NCBI GenBank assembly: GCA_963695855.1
Contig: CAVOHZ010000008.1
Span: 352,001 to 416,000 of the forward strand
Direction: 5' to 3'
Origin: an uncultured Nitrososphaerales archaeon
Lineage (GTDB): Archaea > Thermoproteota > Nitrososphaeria > Nitrososphaerales > Nitrososphaeraceae
DNA length: 64,000 bases
The notes under the pieces were generated by a model. The model had not been told where the DNA came from. It was given only the letters and a program-made list of their open reading frames with translations, and searched no databases. The translations under genes were made by a program, and so were the position numbers. Shown here piece by piece: positions 5,882 through 25,233 of the stretch (the first letter of the stretch is position 1; each line of letters begins with the position of its first letter).

Positions 5882-8800
5882 ATGAAAAATTCCGATAAGA
5901 AATTTAAGGTTTTATTTGCTGGAATATTAATATTTATCTCTTTTCTTGTGTTAAACTCTTTTACATATTTATCAGTTAATGCTCAATCCCAAAGCACTTT
6001 TCTTACCCTTTCAGGATCGGATTTTCTTGATGTAAAAAATAGTGAACGATTGCAATTAGACAAATTTACTCTTTCTACATGGTTTTCTACAGATAAACAA
6101 GATTTCATAGATCCAGGGATGATTGTAAACAAGGGAGGTATGAATGATGATGCTCCTGGTAACAACATGAATTACGGTTTTTGGATAACACCAACCGAAC
6201 TTTTAGAGGGTGGTTTTGAGACAAAGTCAGGTACTAATCTCTTTATAACATCTAAAAATAAATTTAACGATGGTAATTGGCATCATGCATTTCTTACCTA
6301 TGATGGTTCTGTTTTGAAACTGTACGTAGATGGTAACGAAGAGGGTCAGCTCTCAGTGAAAGCAGTCCCTGACAACACAGGTACTCAACCGATAAGAATA
6401 GGTGCGAATTCATTTGCAGATGACAAATTTTTCACTGGAAAGGTGGATGAAGTTATGCTTTGGGATAGAGCATTATCGTTAGAAGAAATATCTAATTCCG
6501 ATAACTTTGACGAATTCCCATTAAATGGAAGAATTCTTTATCTGTCATTTTCATCAGTCTCTCCAATACAATCTACCTATAATTATGCCCCATACAAAAC
6601 TTTTGACGGAAGTGAAAAGGATGAAATTGATGAAGATGAGCAATTATTCCATCTAAGTAATTTTTCGGCAGCAAGTTGGTTTAGAAGCGATAGAATTGAC
6701 CATGATAAGGTGGGAATATTATTAAACAGGGGTGGATTTGGATCTGAACTACAAAATGAAAATCTAAATTATGGTATATGGTTAAATCCATCAGAGACTA
6801 TTGAAGCTGGTTTTGAAACTTCTTCCGGTACAAATGTTTTTGTGACCACATTAGATAAATTTAATGACGGGCTTTGGCATTACGCTGTATTAACGTACGA
6901 CGGCAAGACGTTAAAATTATATGTTGATGGTGTTCTTGTAGATGATAAAATAACATCAGGAATACTGCCAGATTTGGCAGGCGATACAAAATTTGTTATT
7001 GCTGGTGACTCTGTCGCAGATGATAAATTCTTTAAGGGTGATCTTGATGAGATTCGAGTATGGAATAGAGCTATATCTTCGGATGAAGTTTTAAGTGGAT
7101 TTAAAAATAATATATTTAATATTGATGGACAAATATTCTATGAATCGTACTCAGGTGAAGGTCCACCTCCACCACCACAACAAGAAGAATGTCCAGCAGG
7201 TGAACACTTTGATACTACCACAAACGCATGTGTCCCAGACTTACCAACTCCACCACCACAACAAGAAGAATGTCCAGCAGGTGAACACTTTGATACTACC
7301 ACAAACGCATGTGTCCCAGACTTACCAACTCCACCACCACAACAACAAGAATGTCCAGCAGGTGAACACTTTGATACTACCACAAACGCATGTGTCCCAG
7401 ACCTACCAACTCCACCACCACAACAACAAGAAGAATGTCCAGCAGGTGAACACTTTGATACTACCACAAACGCATGTGTCCCAGACTTACCAACTCCACC
7501 ACCACAACAACAAGAGTGTCCAGCAGGTGAACACTTTGATACTACCACAAACGCATGTGTCCCAGACCTACCAACTCCACCACCACAACAACAAGAGTGT
7601 CCAGCAGGTGAACACTTTGATACTACCACAAACGCATGTGTCCCAGACCTACCAACTCCACCACCACAACAAGAAGAATGTCCAGCAGGTGAACACTTTG
7701 ATACTACCACAAACGCATGTGTCCCAGACCTACCAACTCCACCACCACAACAAGAGTGTCCAGCAGGACTACACCTTGAGAATGGTCAGTGCGTCCCAGA
7801 TTTACCACCTCAACTAACCGGAATAGGCTTTCTTTTGGTAGTTACTAACGTTATGAATGATGATAGTGGTACAAAACAGGCTTCTGACTTTACTGTTAAT
7901 GTTAATGGGAATGGACCCTTGCCAAAAACATTCAGCGGTATTCAATCTCCAACAGCAACAAGTGTTGCCATTAATCAAGGAGACTACTCTGTAAGCCTTA
8001 AGGATAACTTAGGATATGAAACAGATTTCCTATACAATTGTGCTGGTACTATACACGTTGAAGAAACACGTGTTTGTGTTATCAATATAGATGATCCAAC
8101 GCCACCACCTCCACCACAAGGATGTCCAGGCGGAGAGCATCTTGATGAGAATGGGCAGTGCGTCCCAGATTTACCTCCTCCACCAGGAACTGGATTTCTT
8201 TTAGTAATTACAGATGTTGTTAACAATAATGGTGGTACAAAAACAGCTTCCGATATTGATATTACTGTTAATGGTAACAATCCTGTTCCATCTAATTTCA
8301 AGGGATCTCAAACACCATTAGGGAAAATTATTGCGCTGACTGAGGGGGGATTCTCTCTAACTGTCAATAATAATTTTGGATATCAAACAAAATTCCTATA
8401 TGATTGTGCCGGTACTGTCAAAGCTCAAGAAACCCATGTTTGTGTTATAAATCTGGATGATCCGATCACAACCGTTACTTCAGGAACAGCACAGGGATGT
8501 CCAGCAGGCCAACACTTTGATGCTACCACAAATGCATGTGTCCCAGAGTTACCTCCTCCACCACAGGGATGTCCAGCAGGACAACACTTTGACCAAACAA
8601 CACAAACATGCGTCCCAGACTTACCTCCTCCACCACAAGGATGTCCAGCAGGACAACACTTTGACCAAACAACACAAACTTGCGTCCCAGAGTTACCTCC
8701 TCCACCACAAGGTACATTTGTTCCTTTCAACTTTGCGGCAGCGGGTGATTGGAATTGCAACTCAAATTCTAAAAAAACAGTACAATCGATGCTTTCTAAA

Positions 8801-18178: not shown

Positions 18179-18374
18179 GATACTCTTATAAACAATTTAT
18201 TGATTTAAAACAGTAAATACTCAGATTTTATGCCGAATACTGACTACAAAGAATTCTTTATTCTGTTTTTGGTGGTACCAAGTAATTTGAAACTGGTGAT
18301 CCATGATGATGAATTATTAACCATTTTTTTTTTGTTATCATATTCAAAAATGTTCGTTGCAACTACTACATGCT

Positions 18375-19379
18375 GTTCTGAATCTGGATATGTCTCCTAT
18401 CTCAGAACTAATGAGCATTGCAGAAAAATAGTCTATTCCTGTCATACTCATTAGTATCTTTACGTTTTCATTTTGAGATGCCTCAGTGGATATCTGTTTT
18501 TCAATCTGTTTGATTTCAGAATTTAGAAATTCAATACTGTGAATGTAGTTTACAAGTTGAATCTGGTCATTACCTTTTAATTCGATATTCTTTAGTCATT
18601 GTATACCTTTTAAACCGAATATATGTCCATAATTACATGTTAGATCATATTTATCAAGTAAGGAATGTACTCTATTCATAACTCTGGTTCTATCAGATAC
18701 TAGGTTTATTCTCAGTCGTAGTAGAGATCTATCTTCTCTTACCTTATCTGGAGCAATATATGATTCTGCAATCAAGTTAGATCGTAGTAGATGTGCTAAT
18801 GTTCGTGCATCGAGTTTATCTGTCTTTATCCTTGCTTCTGCTATTGCCTTGGTCTTCATTGGATTTGCCAACTTAACATCTATTCCATGTTTCTCAAATG
18901 CCTCGTATGTCTTGAGCCACATGTTGGCTGTTGATTCGCAAACAGCCTGACATTTTCTGTTAATATACTTTTTACCCAAATTAGAAGCAAATCTTTTTGC
19001 TTCTTCTAGTGTATTTTCATATTTTGTTTCCTCTATTATGGAACCATCTTTATCTGTAATACATACGACGCAATTTCTCTTTCCAATATCTACTGCAATA
19101 TAGTAATCATCATCATTACTATTTTTTGATTCTATTATTTTTTCTATTTTTATTCTCTTTCTCACCTCCTTTTTTTATTATGACACTATTATCAGTATAC
19201 CAACTAACCAGCAAAGCTGCAAACATCTATCAGAGCTCTTTTGATGGCTCATTTATACAGCAGCTAACATACATCCCCATTCAACAAGCAAGATCTTATC
19301 ACAGAAAGATAGATCACGCACAACAAGGGGTTAGTCAGTTGGATAAGAGAATAGATAACAAGAAAACACTTTTACATGT
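18375..19379 (-). mobile_element. IS110-family element B, 3'-truncated; recombinase pseudogene
   Basis: IAVDIGK, CEST and KTDKLDA (DEDD RuvC-like). In-frame TGA at 18596-18598 is followed by ...KILMSMTGIDYFSAMLISSEIGDISRF, then homology breaks off near 18375. Confidence 0.88.
19200..19342 (-). ncRNA. Putative bridge RNA of IS110 element B
   Basis: Outer stem CCAACTGAC/GTTAGTTGG. Two stem-enclosed internal loops (CCCC..GGGG and AGCTGC..GCAGCT). Loop segment 19279-19288 equals the element flank at 19380-19389. Confidence 0.7.
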
Positions 19380-19390
19380 ATTCAACAAGG

Positions 19391-20408
19391 TGCTCTGTTG
19401 CGTAACTCGTCTAGATAATCATCTATTTTTTGTTACTAAGGTAAATTATGTAACACTTATACTTTGAAACCAGTTATACAAAGACGCTTTCAGTATTATC
19501 TCCTTTATCATGTTCTCAAATCTTATAGCAGTAACATATTCTCCAAACATTCTCTTGATACAGGAAAAGACTGTTTCTACTATCCATCTCTGTCCATAGT
19601 CTACACTATCCTTCCATTGTTGTAGATTGGTTTTCTGTGATTGTACGTTCTTGTTTCTCAAATAATGGTTTGTCTTTCTATACTTGGCATTCTTTCTTAC
19701 CTTAATTGCTGGTTGAATTCCTTTAAATGATAGAAATTGAAAATTCTTGTTACTGTCATAGGCACCATCCATAATGGCAGTTTCAACTACTTTGTTCTGT
19801 TTTATAGTTATATCACCCACTAATTTAGGTAATACTTTTCCATCATGTACTTCTTCACTGGTTACCTGCAGTGATAAGATTCTCTTGTTTTTTATGTCAA
19901 CTGCTACATGTATCTTTAGATAACCTCTCTTCACATTCCATTTATGTCTAATCCATTCTCCTCTGTTTGTAACTTTAACACCAGTAGAATCAATTACAAT
20001 TACAAAATTATTATCATGTTGTAAAATGGATTTATCCTGATCATCATCATCTATTTTGATATCTAATCTGTTTATTCTTCTGCAAATCCCGCTATAATCT
20101 GGAATTGATGGTAACGTATTTGCAGCATGAGCTCGTACAATACCCTCAGTTTGTCTGTATGGTAAATGAAAATATGCTCTCACATATCCAAGTAGTTTGA
20201 TGAATGAATCTGGATATACAAATTTTCTACCTTCCTTGTCCTTATTCATCTTCTCTAGTTCAGAATCCCAGTTATCTATAACATCAAAATCAAGTAATAC
20301 CTCACCACGTTTAACAAGAGATTCATTGTACCTCTTCCAGTTCACATGTATTATGACTAGAATAGGTTAGCTAAATGTGTTAGGAATAGCGAGTTATGCA
20401 ACAAAGCA
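19391..20408 (-). mobile_element. IS5-family (IS903-like) element, apparently intact
   Basis: IRs TGCTCTGTTGCGTAACTC and GAGTTATGCAACAAAGCA; 8-bp direct repeat CAACAAGG at 19383-19390 and 20409-20416. Confidence 0.92.
19446..20345 (-). CDS. IS5-family (IS903-like) transposase
   Basis: NWKRYNESLVKRG, IDSTG, YLKIHVAVD, DGAYDS and RWIVETVFSCIKRMFG motifs. Confidence 0.93.
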   Translation of the reverse strand: MNWKRYNESLVKRGEVLLDFDVIDNWDSELEKMNKDKEGRKFVYPDSFIKLLGYVRAYFHLPYRQTEGIVRAHAANTLPSIPDYSGICRRINRLDIKIDDDDQDKSILQHDNNFVIVIDSTGVKVTNRGEWIRHKWNVKRGYLKIHVAVDIKNKRILSLQVTSEEVHDGKVLPKLVGDITIKQNKVVETAIMDGAYDSNKNFQFLSFKGIQPAIKVRKNAKYRKTNHYLRNKNVQSQKTNLQQWKDSVDYGQRWIVETVFSCIKRMFGEYVTAIRFENMIKEIILKASLYNWFQSISVT

Positions 20409-20688
20409 CAACAAGGCACAACAAGGCACAACACAGCATAAAATGATATTGATATTTATTTCAAAAAATTTGTAAAAATATACTGAATTTGATTTATTTT
20501 TACATTATACGTTTTACAAGAATGTTGCCTCATAAACTTTTTATCATTTTTCATATGATAAGACAATTTCCACATGACCAGAGATCTGTTCCTTCAATTC
20601 TATAATGTTGAATTAATAATTCGAGGATCTTAAATCCCTCTGGAAAAGTCATACACAGAAATTGAAGGATTTTTAAATTCTATATTAA

Positions 20689-22399: not shown

Positions 22400-22917
22400 A
22401 CTAATAATTATTTTATCTTCTAAACTATTTATAATTTAAAATCAAGGGGTTTGGATGGAAAAATATTCAATTCTAAATCTATTATATTTCTTGCAATATT
22501 TTTAACATTTTAGAAATTTGAAGACAGAAGTGGTAATATACTTCCTCATGAGTTTTCAAGATTTATAATTGTTTCTCCCATCTTCCACCATTATCTTCCC
22601 ATGTTTCATTTATTTTATCATGTTTTTCTATTTCATAACTATCTTCCGCATAAGTTATGTTATACTCATATTCATCTTGAAGATTTGTATTTTCAGGAGT
22701 GCAATTACCATCATCCCATTCTCCATGGTAATAAGGATAGATCTCTTCCTTGTCATTATCATTGATGATACTTGATGTTTTTCCATTAAACTATAACATA
22801 TTATATTATTCTACAATTTTTTATAACAAACATATTTTATTAATATTATTAGATTTAAACAATCAGAAAATCAGGCTCTGACGATATGAAAATCTTTTAG
22901 TCTGTTTCATTACTGTA

Positions 22918-23042
22918 TGTTGGCTAGGTTCAAAATTAACATACTCCGTATGAGAGTGAGGCTCTGACTGAACCGTATCTGTGAAGTGGCTATCATAGTA
23001 CCCTTCGAGGGTGGATGGATGTTTGCCACCTGTTAGCCAACA
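22918..23042 (+). ncRNA. Putative bridge RNA of IS110 element A
   Basis: Outer stem TGTTGGCTA/TAGCCAACA. Loop 1 is closed by GGTTCA/TGAACC and loop 2 by GTGGC/GCCAC with hairpin ACCCT-TCG-AGGGT. Loop 1 segments match both flanks of the element. Confidence 0.8.
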
Positions 23043-23070
23043 AATAAAAAAAGAAGGTGAATAAAAATAA

Positions 23071-24151
23071 TTGAATCATCTTGGAATAGATGTTGGAAAG
23101 AAAAAATGCAGCGCAGCACTAAAAGATGATAGAGGCAAGACACTGGATGAATTCTTCTTTGGTAACAATTCTGATGGAATATTAGAACTGATTGAAAGGA
23201 TACACAATCATGGAACAAAAAAATGTAATGCAGTACTGGAATCTACAGGAAACATGTGGATGAGAATACATGATATATTGGAAGATAATGGAATAGATAC
23301 AGTACTAGCAAATCCATACAGAACAAAGATAATAGCACAAGCAAAGATAAAATCAGATAAACTTGATGCACGTATATTATCTGATCTGCTGAGAACTGGA
23401 TTGGTATACGAGTCATATGTACCTGTAAAGAAAGGAATTCAGAGAAAAAAGAAGTCTGGTCAGACATAGAATAGTCTTGTCTAGAACCAAGACAAAACTT
23501 GCAAACAAGGTACATGCTATTTTAGACAAATATGAGTACAGAACAGAGCTGACAGACATATTCGGTAGATCGGGAATTGAGTGGCTAAAATCACTCTCAG
23601 TTTCACCAATAGACAGGATAATACTGAATACAACACTAACATCCATAGAATCGATAGATAACCAGATAGAAATAGTATCAAAAGAGATAGCAAAATACGC
23701 ATGGAAGGATAGTCAAGATGTAAAGATACTTCTCAGCATGACAGGAATAGACGTATTTTCTGCAATGCTGATATCAACGGAAATAGTGGATATCACCAGA
23801 TTCTCTACACCATGGAAACTTGTTAGTTATGCAGGATTATCTCCATCAACAAGAGAATCATCTGGAAAAACAAAAACAGGTAGAATAACCAAACAAGGAT
23901 CACCATTATTAAGATGGATACTAGTACAGTGTTCATTATCTGCAGTAAGACATGACCGTCACATGAGAACCTTCTATGAAAGAATCAAACAGAGAAAGGG
24001 ACATGGGAAAGCAATAGTTGCAACAGCAAAGGAGGTGCTTATTATAATATGGTACATGCTAACAAGACACCAATTGTATAGATACATGAATAGAACAAGG
24101 TATGAACAGAAACTGGAAAGTCTGAAGAAGAGTGGATCGCAAGAAAGGTAA
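23071..24151 (+). pseudogene. IS110 recombinase split by a 4-bp duplication
   Basis: LGIDVGK, LEST, KSDKLDA, then YAGLSPSTRESSGK and GRITKQG. AAAG is duplicated at 23427-23434; removing one copy restores VPVKEFREKRSLVRHR. Confidence 0.9.
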
Positions 24152-24314
24152 CAATTAAACAAAAAAGACAACGACCTCAGAGAACAAGGATGTCATATAT
24201 AGCGGAGGCTATTGCTAATAATGCTTAATAGATAGAAAAACATAACAAAATGAGGCTAAACAGGATAGAAAAGATAACCAGCATACAGGTAGATTTTCAT
24301 GGATGTTAATTTAA

Positions 24315-25233
24315 GAGCCTATCCCAAAAATAGATAGGAATATAGCTCCTTTGTTTCTTATCATATCTGATAATGTTTAAGAGTGAAAAATATGTTAGAA
24401 GTATTACATGTATTCCAGATGATCTTTGGAATGAAATTACAAATATTTTCCCTTTTGAAAAACCATAGAATACAATAGGGCGTCCCATTATTCCTTACAG
24501 AGAAGTATTTGATGGTATCCTGTTTGTCTTGAGAACTGGATGTCAATGGAAAATGTTACCCAAAGAATATGGTTCTGGTTCTACATGTCATAGAAGATTT
24601 CGAGAATGGAGAGAATCAGGTATATTTGATAAATTATGGAGCAGATTATTAAAATTATATGATTTAAAGAAAGGAATAAAATGGAACTGGCAGTCACTTG
24701 ATAGCATCTCTATAAAATCGCCTTTAGGGGGGCGATGACAGGTCATAATCCTACTACAGATAGAAGTAAATTAGGTAGTAAAAGACATATTTTAACAGAT
24801 AAAGATGGTATTCCCCTTTCAACTGTTATAACATCTGCATATACTCATGATGTTACTGTTGCAACAAATACAATTGATAATATTGTTATCAAAAGACCAC
24901 CACCTTCATCATCAATAGCAAAATATAGAAACAAGAAGAAGAATAAGAAAAAGCAGAATCTATGTCTTGATAAAGCATATCATTCCAAGGAAATAGAACA
25001 AGAAGTTATCAAAAGAGGATATATTCCACATATACGACACAGAAGAGAAGAAAAGAAATACAGCAATAGACATCCTGCAGTAAGAAGATGGGTGGTAGAG
25101 AGAACAAATTCTTGGCATAACAGATTCAGAAAATTATTTACAAGATATGAAAAGAAGGATGAGAACTATCTTGGTCTTGTACAGTTAGCAAATAGCATAA
25201 TTGTTCATAGGAGGTTAATTTTGGGGTAGGCTC
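24315..25233 (+). mobile_element. IS5-family (IS1031/IS427-like, two-ORF) element
   Basis: IRs GAGCCTATCCCAAAA and TTTTGGGGTAGGCTC, TAA duplication. ORFs overlap at TTAGGGGGG (possible -1 frameshift). LDS, DKAY and RWVVERTNSW motifs. Confidence 0.92.

Follow-up and report, generated by a model that had tools for sequence, protein, structure and literature searches.

The 64,000-nucleotide stretch analyzed here (the window) covers positions 352,001 to 416,000 of contig CAVOHZ010000008.1 in assembly GCA_963695855.1, from an uncultured archaeon of the Nitrososphaeraceae. The host genome comprises 3.55 Mb in 11 contigs with approximately 31% G+C and contains an archaeal amoA gene (E = 1.4e-117). 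Positions 19390–18371 on the minus strand of the window very probably represent a dead copy of an insertion sequence (IS) of the IS110 family, referred to as element B, and the 190 bases at its left end very probably correspond to the gene for its bridge (seek) RNA. Another IS110-family element, A (22881–24305, plus strand), was delimited by its layout and by comparison with empty sites, and served as the comparison partner. The named records with close transposase relatives were Nitrososphaerales and Nitrososphaeraceae metagenome-assembled genomes (MAGs).

Read on the minus strand, on which all features of B lie, positions 19390–19200 open with CCTTGTTGAATAC-ATGTAAAAGTG, continue for approximately 40 nt and reach CCAACTGAC-TAA. 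This is followed by CCCC-TTGTTGTGCGT-(hairpin GATCTATC...GATAAGATC)-TTG-CTTGTTGAAT-GGGG, then by ATGTATGTTA, by GCTGC-TGTATAAAT-(hairpin GAGC...GCTC)-TGATAGATGTTT-GCAGC, and finally by TTTGCTG-GTTAGTTGG. The RNA sits in the ~210 nt upstream of the transposase start codon, and a Shine-Dalgarno-like GGAGGTG (19169–19163) and a GTG start come after it. The N-terminal DEDD domain of the transposase occupies 18596–19165, as judged from a PF01548 match (E = 2.3e-27), the translation and a comparison with an intact copy, and is closed by an in-frame TGA at 18598–18596, where intact copies have TGG. The rest of the frame runs through 18371–18595 in the translation, and similarity to the intact copies ends at 18371 (query position 1080); therefore, the C-terminal domain and the right end of B are missing. 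Accordingly, the domain search of this truncated copy returned PF01548 only, and the copy lacks the GLxPxxxxSG-containing part, the C-terminus and the entire right end. With its transposase stopped by TGA and these parts gone, the copy in the window cannot move. The DNA that replaces its 3′ part (18300–18370) is a repeat, 90–93% identical to positions 1310500–1310568 and 1746494–1746562 of contig C10, the latter being the left flank of one (Ap4) of the mini-elements (Ap) described below.

Two intact copies of B were found in the genome, b1 (C10:287354, plus strand) and b2 (C10:291298, minus strand), which are 99.8% identical to each other and both 86% identical to the copy in the window. Their 378-amino-acid protein matched NF033542, "IS110 family RNA-guided transposase", with 250.4 bits (cut-off 140). 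The b1 protein contained the domain pair of the family, PF01548 (DEDD_Tnp_IS110) followed by PF02371 (Transposase_20), carried the GL-P----SG motif as GLCPTIYQSG, and aligned with the IS621 transposase 8wt6 (E = 3.6e-12). Both copies have 11-bp subterminal inverted repeats, ATGTAAAAGTC on the left paired with GACTTTTACAT on the right, set five and three bases (plus the core) in from the ends; the left repeat of the copy in the window is ATGTAAAAGTG (19367–19377). The two intact copies occupy the two inverted repeats of a single IS5-family copy, head to head, and the intervening 1 kb shares 83% identity over 963 nt with the IS5-family element in the window.

The boundaries of B were set by comparing occupied with uninterrupted sites. 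When the genome was searched for the IS5-end motif by fuzzy matching, 45 matches were obtained, most of them ends of IS5-family elements. Uninterrupted ends read TGCCTTGT-TG-CACAACTTGTTCTTCTCAACACATTTAGC or TGCCTTGT-TG-CACAACTTGTTCTT..., with the variants TGCTTTGTTGCGTAAC, ...CCTAAC and ...CATAAC. By pattern count, 41 uninterrupted B-type sites exist in the genome, 17 of which are TGCCTTGTTGCACAAC; the commonest uninterrupted site was TGCCTTGT-TG-CACAAC-TTG, with 17 copies. The occupied site, with the element in square brackets, reads tgCCTTGT-TG-[ AATACATG...CATAGA-TG]-CCCAAC, and the b1 site reads tgCCTTGT-TG-[ AATACATGTAAAAGTC...GACTTTTACATAGA-TG]-CCCAACTCATTTTGCCTAACACATTTAGC. Past the right repeat, b1 continues with AGA-TG-CCCAACTC and b2 with AGA-TG-CATAACTC, giving the right junctions TG-CCCAAC-TC and TG-CATAAC-TC, respectively; the right flank of b1 runs on into ...GCCTAACACATTTAGCTAACC..., the left end of an IS5-family element. 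From this comparison it follows that the core is TG, that B starts with AATAC and ends with CATAGA, and that its target is the terminal inverted repeat of IS5-family elements. Empty sites carry a single TG, and b1, b2 and the A copies each have TG at either end, with no longer target duplication. One metagenome DNA contig (n = 1) matched the right flank of b1 from the T of TG onward and carried ...TGCCTTGT / ...GTGCCTTGT before it.

Applied to the copy in the window, these boundaries place the left-target remnant CCTTGT, the start of the IS5-family inverted repeat that B entered (compared with uninterrupted repeats, TGCCTTGT-TG-CACAAC), at 19385–19390, the core TG of the left junction at 19383–19384, and AATAC, the first five bases of B (the right donor), at 19378–19382. 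5′ of the remnant, from position 19391 upward, lies the right end of a different IS5 copy. AATAC is absent from the empty sites and opens 19 of the 21 tabulated B-type elements, the other two starting with AACGC and TATAC. A one-mismatch search of the genome for TTGTTGAATAC yielded ~200 unrelated matches and did not turn up an empty site, as AATAC is part of the element. Two other placements of the core, an AT adjoining the inverted repeat and an AT two bases further right, were dropped once the empty sites were known.

Element A was delimited in the same manner. Its left target AGGCTC (22873–22878) and core TG (22879–22880) are followed by the right donor ACGAT, and then by GATTTTCAT-GGA-TG and the right target TTAATTTAAG (24306–24315). 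Its subterminal inverted repeats are ATGAAAATCT/AGATTTTCAT, and its transposase is frameshifted into two open reading frames (23071–23469 and 23477–24151). Occupied A sites read (A)GGCTC-TG-[ ACGATATGAAAATC...GATTTTCATGGA-TG]-TTAA(T/G)TTAAG. At C10:1746000, the uninterrupted site GGCTCTGTTAAGTTAAGGAAAATTTATG corresponds to the occupied GGCTC-TG-[A2]-TTAAGTTAAGGAAAATTTATG and, as GGCTC-TG-TTAAGTTAAGGAAAATTTATG, represents the uninterrupted paralogue of the A2/A4 flank. The genome contains 68 uninterrupted sites of the form GGYNSTGTTAANTT, which are ends of several other repeat families; A inserts at GGCTC-TG-TTAANTT ends of other elements. The empty sites of both families therefore establish TG as the core common to A and B.

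The minimum free energy fold of 19377–19170 contained the outer, CCCC/GGGG and GCTGC/GCAGC stems (z = −2.70), and none of 200 shuffled sequences folded as well. For A, the single-sequence fold was less distinct (z = −1.03, with 28 of 200 shuffles as good). Consensus folds obtained with RNAalifold comprised 26 pairs for 18 B RNAs and 28 pairs for 13 A RNAs, of which 6 and 5, respectively, were changed on both sides. The A and B RNAs were folded separately, as a joint MAFFT alignment mis-aligned the 5′ halves. The two consensus folds share one topology, namely an outer stem, a loop-1 stem with an inner hairpin and a loop-2 stem with an inner hairpin, while the stems themselves differ in a compensated way (CCCC/GGGG vs GGTTCA/TGAACC; GCTGC/GCAGC vs GTGGC/GCCAC and GCGGC/GCCGC). 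The core of the B RNA, that is, the outer stem around both loops, occupies 19200–19342, and the outer stem itself consists of CCAACTGAC (19342–19334) and GTTAGTTGG (19208–19200). As in bridge RNAs and seekRNAs, a structured RNA thus lies in the element end, with two stems each enclosing an internal loop.

Loop 1 consists of CCCC (19330–19327), TTGTTGTGCGT (19326–19316), a hairpin (19315–19292), CTTGTTGAAT (19288–19279) and GGGG (19278–19275). Its 5′ side contains GUUGUG-CG-U (19316–19324), which is complementary to the top strand A-TG-CACAAC with a G.U wobble at the core T, fits the 17 uninterrupted sites, changes with the right flank in relatives, and was assigned as the right-target guide. 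The corresponding guide of A, AAAUUAA-CA-U, is complementary to A-TG-TTAATTT; in both elements, the leading A opposite the final guide U is the last base of the element and not part of the target. The 3′ side, CUUGU-UG-AAU (19279–19288), is identical to the left target, the core and the first three bases of B, and should therefore pair with the bottom strand as the left-target guide. Its counterpart in A, GAGGCUC-UG-AC, likewise equals the left target, the core and AC.

Loop 2 matches the ends of the element itself. On its 5′ side, UGUAUAAAU (19251–19259), the right-donor guide, has its first 4–5 nt (UGUAU) complementary to element bases 2–6 (ATACA), and the guide/element pairs differ in step among elements (A, UAUC/GATA; A′, UAUA/TATA; B, UGUA/TACA; L072, UAUC/GATA; L073, GUGUU/AACAC). 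On its 3′ side, AUAGA-UG (19224–19230), the left-donor guide, is identical to the last bases of the element, CATAGA, plus the core; in A, this strand is AUGGA-UG(UU), again the element end plus the core. As a donor loop, loop 2 thus matches CAT(A/G)GA-TG by AU(A/G)GA-UG on the 3′ side, whereas the 5′ side matches element bases 2–6 over only 4–5 nt, with some mismatches. The string common to both RNAs, GATGTTTGC, contains the donor guide and the core and occurs twice in the window (19227–19219, minus strand; 23018–23026, plus strand), against an expectation of 0.30 (1 of 100 shuffles reached two). CTTGTTGAAT occurs three times against 0.44 expected (3 of 100 shuffles reached three, a weak result when taken alone), and the analogous 10-mer of A, AGGCTCTGAC, twice against 0.04 expected (0 of 100 shuffles reached two).

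The case for a pattern beyond chance rests mainly on its recurrence, with co-variation, in relatives. DNA searches with the B RNA gave matches in 10 of 61 genomes including that of the window (8 of the 24 other genomes of the genus), and searches with the A RNA in 19 of 41 genomes (18 of 24 in the genus). From these loci and those of the transposase relatives, 21 distinct B-type elements (20 usable, 10 with a right junction) and 34 A-type records were tabulated. Joint changes of guides and flanks were seen across 53 elements on the left-target side and 28 on the right-target side. The left guide of B was at least 5/6 identical to the left target in 14 of 20 elements, and the four left-target haplotypes CTTGT, TTTGT, TCTGT and TGTGT were mirrored in the 3′ strand of loop 1 (e.g., L063, L061, L062 and L066). 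With G.U pairs included, the right guide paired with the right target at 6/6 positions in three of 10 elements, 5/6 in six and 3/6 in one, and the variants CGCAAC (L063, 6/6), CATAGC (L066, five plus one wobble) and TCCATC (L064, 5/6) were mirrored. Regarding A, the three-state right-target site TTAA(T/C/G)TT was matched at 7/7 positions in 13 of the 18 elements with a right junction, and the left-target variants GGTGC, GGTCC and GGCTA were mirrored in the RNA (L037, L052, Ap2 and L058). The element end AGA or GGA tracked AUAGAUG or AUGGAUG in all rows of the A table where both could be read, except Ap6.

The co-variation extends to five distant relatives from Nitrosopumilaceae and other Thaumarchaeota MAGs, with 39–53% amino acid identity, which keep the fold, the TG core and CATAGA, while their guides differ and agree with their own flanks, which do not belong to insertion sequences. 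For example, L073 has UGUCUUCC-CA-U vs A-TG-GGAAGAC and GACUUC-UG-AA vs ACTTC-TG-AA, and the closely related L075 has UGUAUAAC and GACAUA vs GTTA... and ACATA. The relative L070, from a Nitrosopumilus MAG, has a (TGC)n(TGT)n microsatellite on one side and a (TGTGGT)n repeat on the other, and its guides match those repeats. Elsewhere, two B-type left ends in one genome (L008 and L023 in G016), both accompanied by their left target, face one another approximately 170 nt apart, with no transposase between them.

When flanks were shuffled 10000 times within each family, the observed total was reached in 12 shuffles for the A left target (n = 33), 175 for the A right target (n = 18), 3 for the B left target (n = 20) and 72 for the B right target (n = 10); the relatives share ancestry, so these counts overstate independence and are only indicative, which is one of several points that weigh against a guide RNA. 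The counts keep the degenerate fragments L021, L044, L045, L056 and L057 and drop L043, which has a non-TG junction. The other points are as follows. One to three flank mismatches occur in several elements (L067, L042, Ap1, Ap5 and L056), and the guide of L037 entered the counts as a mismatch through an extraction error, although the alignment shows AACTTAACAT, which matches and makes it a fourteenth A element. The 5′ guide of loop 2 is short (4–5 nt) and mismatched in Ap2 and Ap7, and the UUU after AUAGA-UG does not match the right target of B. The B target is near-palindromic (CTTGTTG / CACAAC), so that the guide strands are ambiguous from B alone; their assignment was settled by the co-variation and by the non-palindromic target of A. 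Rfam gave no match in the whole window at the gathering threshold, and at E ≤ 10 the two RNA regions gave only chance-level matches to HOTAIR_2, sR39 and the S15 leader, a bridge RNA model being possibly not in Rfam 15. Finally, transcription of the RNA and its binding by the protein are predicted from sequence. Among contigs of three metatranscriptome runs, only transposase parts of relatives were covered and none spanned the RNA region; these libraries may hold DNA, and the result is no evidence either way.

A model without any guide RNA, in which the short strings are protein-binding subterminal repeats or the copies merely share one conserved repeat (inverted repeats belonging to other insertion sequences), is very unlikely. 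The targets are themselves conserved repeats, so identical flanks would be expected without an RNA, and subterminal inverted repeats of 10–11 bp could be read by a protein. This model is opposed, however, by the flank variants, which recur inside the element concerned, on either side of the core and on opposite strands, by the position of the matched strings in the internal loops of a conserved fold, and by a protein family shown to be RNA-guided.

The genome also contains seven mini-elements of 318–355 bp (A′) that have no transposase gene and consist of an A-like bridge RNA and both ends. They are located at C8:114019(−), C8:187898(+), C10:1354501(+), C10:1746456(−), C10:1407611(+), C3:465558(+) and C3:37676(−). 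Their ends (ACTAT..., ...AGA) and their loop 2 (UAUA, AUAGAUG) differ from those of A in step, and further mini-elements occur in relatives (e.g., L042 and L055). These elements bear on the idea that the structured region is mainly a 5′ leader controlling translation of the transposase, with the flank matches as by-products. Such a leader would agree with a structure that ends approximately 30 nt before GGAGGTG and the GTG start, but it is hardly credible given that seven elements lacking the transposase retain the whole RNA, both ends and nothing else, and it leaves the co-variation with the flanks unexplained.

The first-pass annotation of this region, made from the window alone, had described another element of the IS110 family, sharing the two-loop RNA architecture of A and having naturally different target and donor guides. 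All of its quoted strings are present at 19200–19390 on the minus strand, including the second CTTGTTGAAT directly before AC-ATGTAAAAGT (a 10-mer at 19389–19380), the first-guide ends ...CAT (A) and ...CGT (B), and the loop 2 starts TATC (A) and TGTA (B). The shared architecture is borne out by the domain match and by consensus folds of the same topology, and the difference in guides by loops that change together with the DNA they match; the co-variation that it expected in a larger alignment was found in the 21 B-type elements and 34 A-type records. The annotation was partly supported, being right in kind and wrong in register, with the core placed five bases off. It had taken AT as the core of A and AC as that of B, whereas the uninterrupted paralogous sites show TG in both families, and AATAC (B) and ACGAT (A), which it had read as flank plus core, are the first bases of the elements. 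Consequently, only part of CTTGTTGAAT matches the flank, namely the CTTGT target and the TG core, while its AAT belongs to the element. The AT or GT guide end, which was said to track the core, reflects Watson-Crick or G.U wobble pairing opposite the T of the same TG, and several B relatives carry CAT. The co-variation of TATC and TGTA is real, but it tracks bases 3–6 of the left end of the element (GATA/TACA), so that this strand is a donor guide and not a core guide. In the right flank predicted for B, AC-GCACAACAA, AC was wrong and GCACAAC right, as seen in the 17 uninterrupted copies of TGCCTTGT-TG-CACAAC-TTG; the proposed check, the right flank of full-length copies, gave TG-CCCAAC-TC and TG-CATAAC-TC and thus not AC-GCACAACAA as written. 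As a model in its own right, with B starting at ATGTAAAAGT, a target CTTGTTGAAT-AC-GCACAACAA and guide ends co-varying with the core, an AC core (AT for A) fits the strings of the window alone, where the guide 1 end GU is the exact complement of AC, but is extremely improbable, since it needs an uninterrupted TTGTTGAATACGCACAAC while the empty sites have neither AATAC nor AC, CTTGTTGAATAC occurs in the genome only at the two B left junctions, full copies end in ...CATAGA-TG-C and not in ...-AC-GCAC, TG flanks A and B alike, and B relatives with CAU instead of CGU share the same junction.

Returning to the bridge RNA, the boundaries of the elements, their core, the guide matches, the co-variation of guides and DNA, and the protein family are direct observations. 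By homology with IS621 and ISEc11, the RNA would be transcribed and bound by the recombinase, with loop 1 binding the target and loop 2 binding the donor. Element B would leave as a circle joined as ...CATAGA-TG-AATACATG... (expected junction ...TTTTACATAGA-TG-AATACATGTAAAAG...), and the DEDD/Ser recombinase with its RNA would recombine this circle junction with TGCCTTGT-TG-CACAAC at TG, the target being the terminal inverted repeat of an IS5-family element. The circle intermediate and the recombination chemistry are likewise those expected from these homologues.

Bridge RNAs of the IS110 family were described by Durrant et al. 2024 (PMC11208160) and Hiraizumi et al. 2024 (PMC11208158), and seekRNAs of the IS1111 group (ISEc11, ISPa11 and ISKpn4) by Siddiquee et al. 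2024 (PMC11187229). Large-scale natural co-variation of guides and targets was already established. As in IS621, the RNA is located in the left end, upstream of the transposase, loop one corresponds to the target and loop two to the donor, each loop reads one strand on the left and the other strand on the right with an overlap at the 2-nt core, short extensions match the partner DNA like handshake guides, and the protein is homologous. The elements differ from IS621 in their core (TG here, CT there), in their subterminal repeats (10–11 bp here, 2–3 bp there) and in their archaeal host. Within the IS110 group in the narrow sense (IS621 and ISEc21), the bottom-strand match lies 5′ of the top-strand match and repeats are absent or 2–3 bp, neither of which applies here. 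Instead, the top-strand match 5′ of the bottom-strand match, the long subterminal repeats and the GL-P----SG motif are shared with the IS1111 seekRNA elements (PMC11187229), whose group is characterized by subterminal repeats of 7–17 bp; those of B measure 11 bp and those of the elements here 10–11 bp. The IS1111 group differs in having its non-coding region downstream of the transposase gene, whereas the RNA is upstream here, although a few exceptions with an upstream region have been noted (ISMtsp17; PMC11187229). Among transposase-less elements, MITEPpu9 of ISPpu9 also keeps IS110-family ends (Pares-Guillen et al. 2025, PMC12288879); it carries the small RNA Ssr9, which is dispensable for transposition, while the A′ mini-elements carry the bridge RNA itself. 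Archaeal IS110 recombinases have been catalogued (n = 662; Vaysset et al. 2024), and bridge RNA diversity was mined from 181,180 recombinase-adjacent regions in a 2026 preprint. In the available text of Vaysset et al. 2024, "Thaumarchaeota" and "Nitrososphaer" have 0 occurrences. We found no text on Nitrososphaerales bridge RNAs in the available literature, which is no proof of absence, and supplements may hold archaeal examples or IS1111 examples with an upstream RNA.

IS4321/IS5075 are reportedly an IS110-family precedent for targeting the ends of another mobile element. The present elements resemble IS4321/IS5075 and ISEc21 in having a target in a mobile element, which here consists of IS5-family inverted repeats for B and GGCTCTGTTAA-type ends for A. 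In ISEc21, the targets are IS3 genes (PMC11187229).

With its unusual host and hybrid IS110/IS1111 layout, element B is an ordinary, decayed representative of a known mechanism, and its effect on existing knowledge is small. We tentatively suggest that a separate lineage of bridge-RNA transposons may exist in ammonia-oxidizing archaea (Nitrososphaerales), combining an upstream RNA (as in IS110) with the guide order and long repeats of IS1111 around a TG core, parasitic on the terminal repeats of other insertion sequences, and having spawned mini-elements of ~330 bp that consist of a bridge RNA and two ends. If this is true, the guide used by a mini-element would be its own and the recombinase would be borrowed. 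The bacterial bridge/seek RNA logic is readable straight from an archaeal genome, with loops, core, donor and target assignable through paralogous empty sites; boundaries guessed from a single copy misplaced the core by five bases, which calls for caution in such readings. Many natural guide variants whose targets are known are available in this lineage, and its hybrid layout may help to reconstruct the sequence of steps in the RNA's move from one element end to the other.

The IS5-family element next to B occupies 19391–20412 on the minus strand (NF033579, 281.5 bits; PF01609/PF13737). An unoccupied B-type target is provided by its left inverted repeat, TGCTTTGT-TG-CATAAC, in which the core and right target lie at 20393–20404. 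Four tandem 10-nt units of TGCYTTGTTG (20399–20438) lie directly before this inverted repeat, at this copy only; the unit is the same as the left target and core of the B target, and the array may be a scar of TG-core recombination. On the side of A, positions 22881–24305 and onward form a nest of insertion sequences, in which the right target TTAATTTAAG is followed, from 24316 onward, by the end of yet a different repeat family, AGCCTATCCCAAAA(A/T)TAG, which has 54 ends genome-wide. Approximately 28 tandem copies of the 18-nt unit GTCTCTGTTAAACGGTTT, which resembles the core region of the A-type target, are present at positions 6260–6750 of contig C3. A third IS110-family element (C), with ~35% amino acid identity to B, is present in three near-identical copies (C10:140729, 267175 and 1598722); as its flanks resemble each other, no right boundary could be assigned. 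Its left flank ends in GGCTCTG, and with only ~73 nt before the open reading frame, its RNA, if any, may lie downstream.

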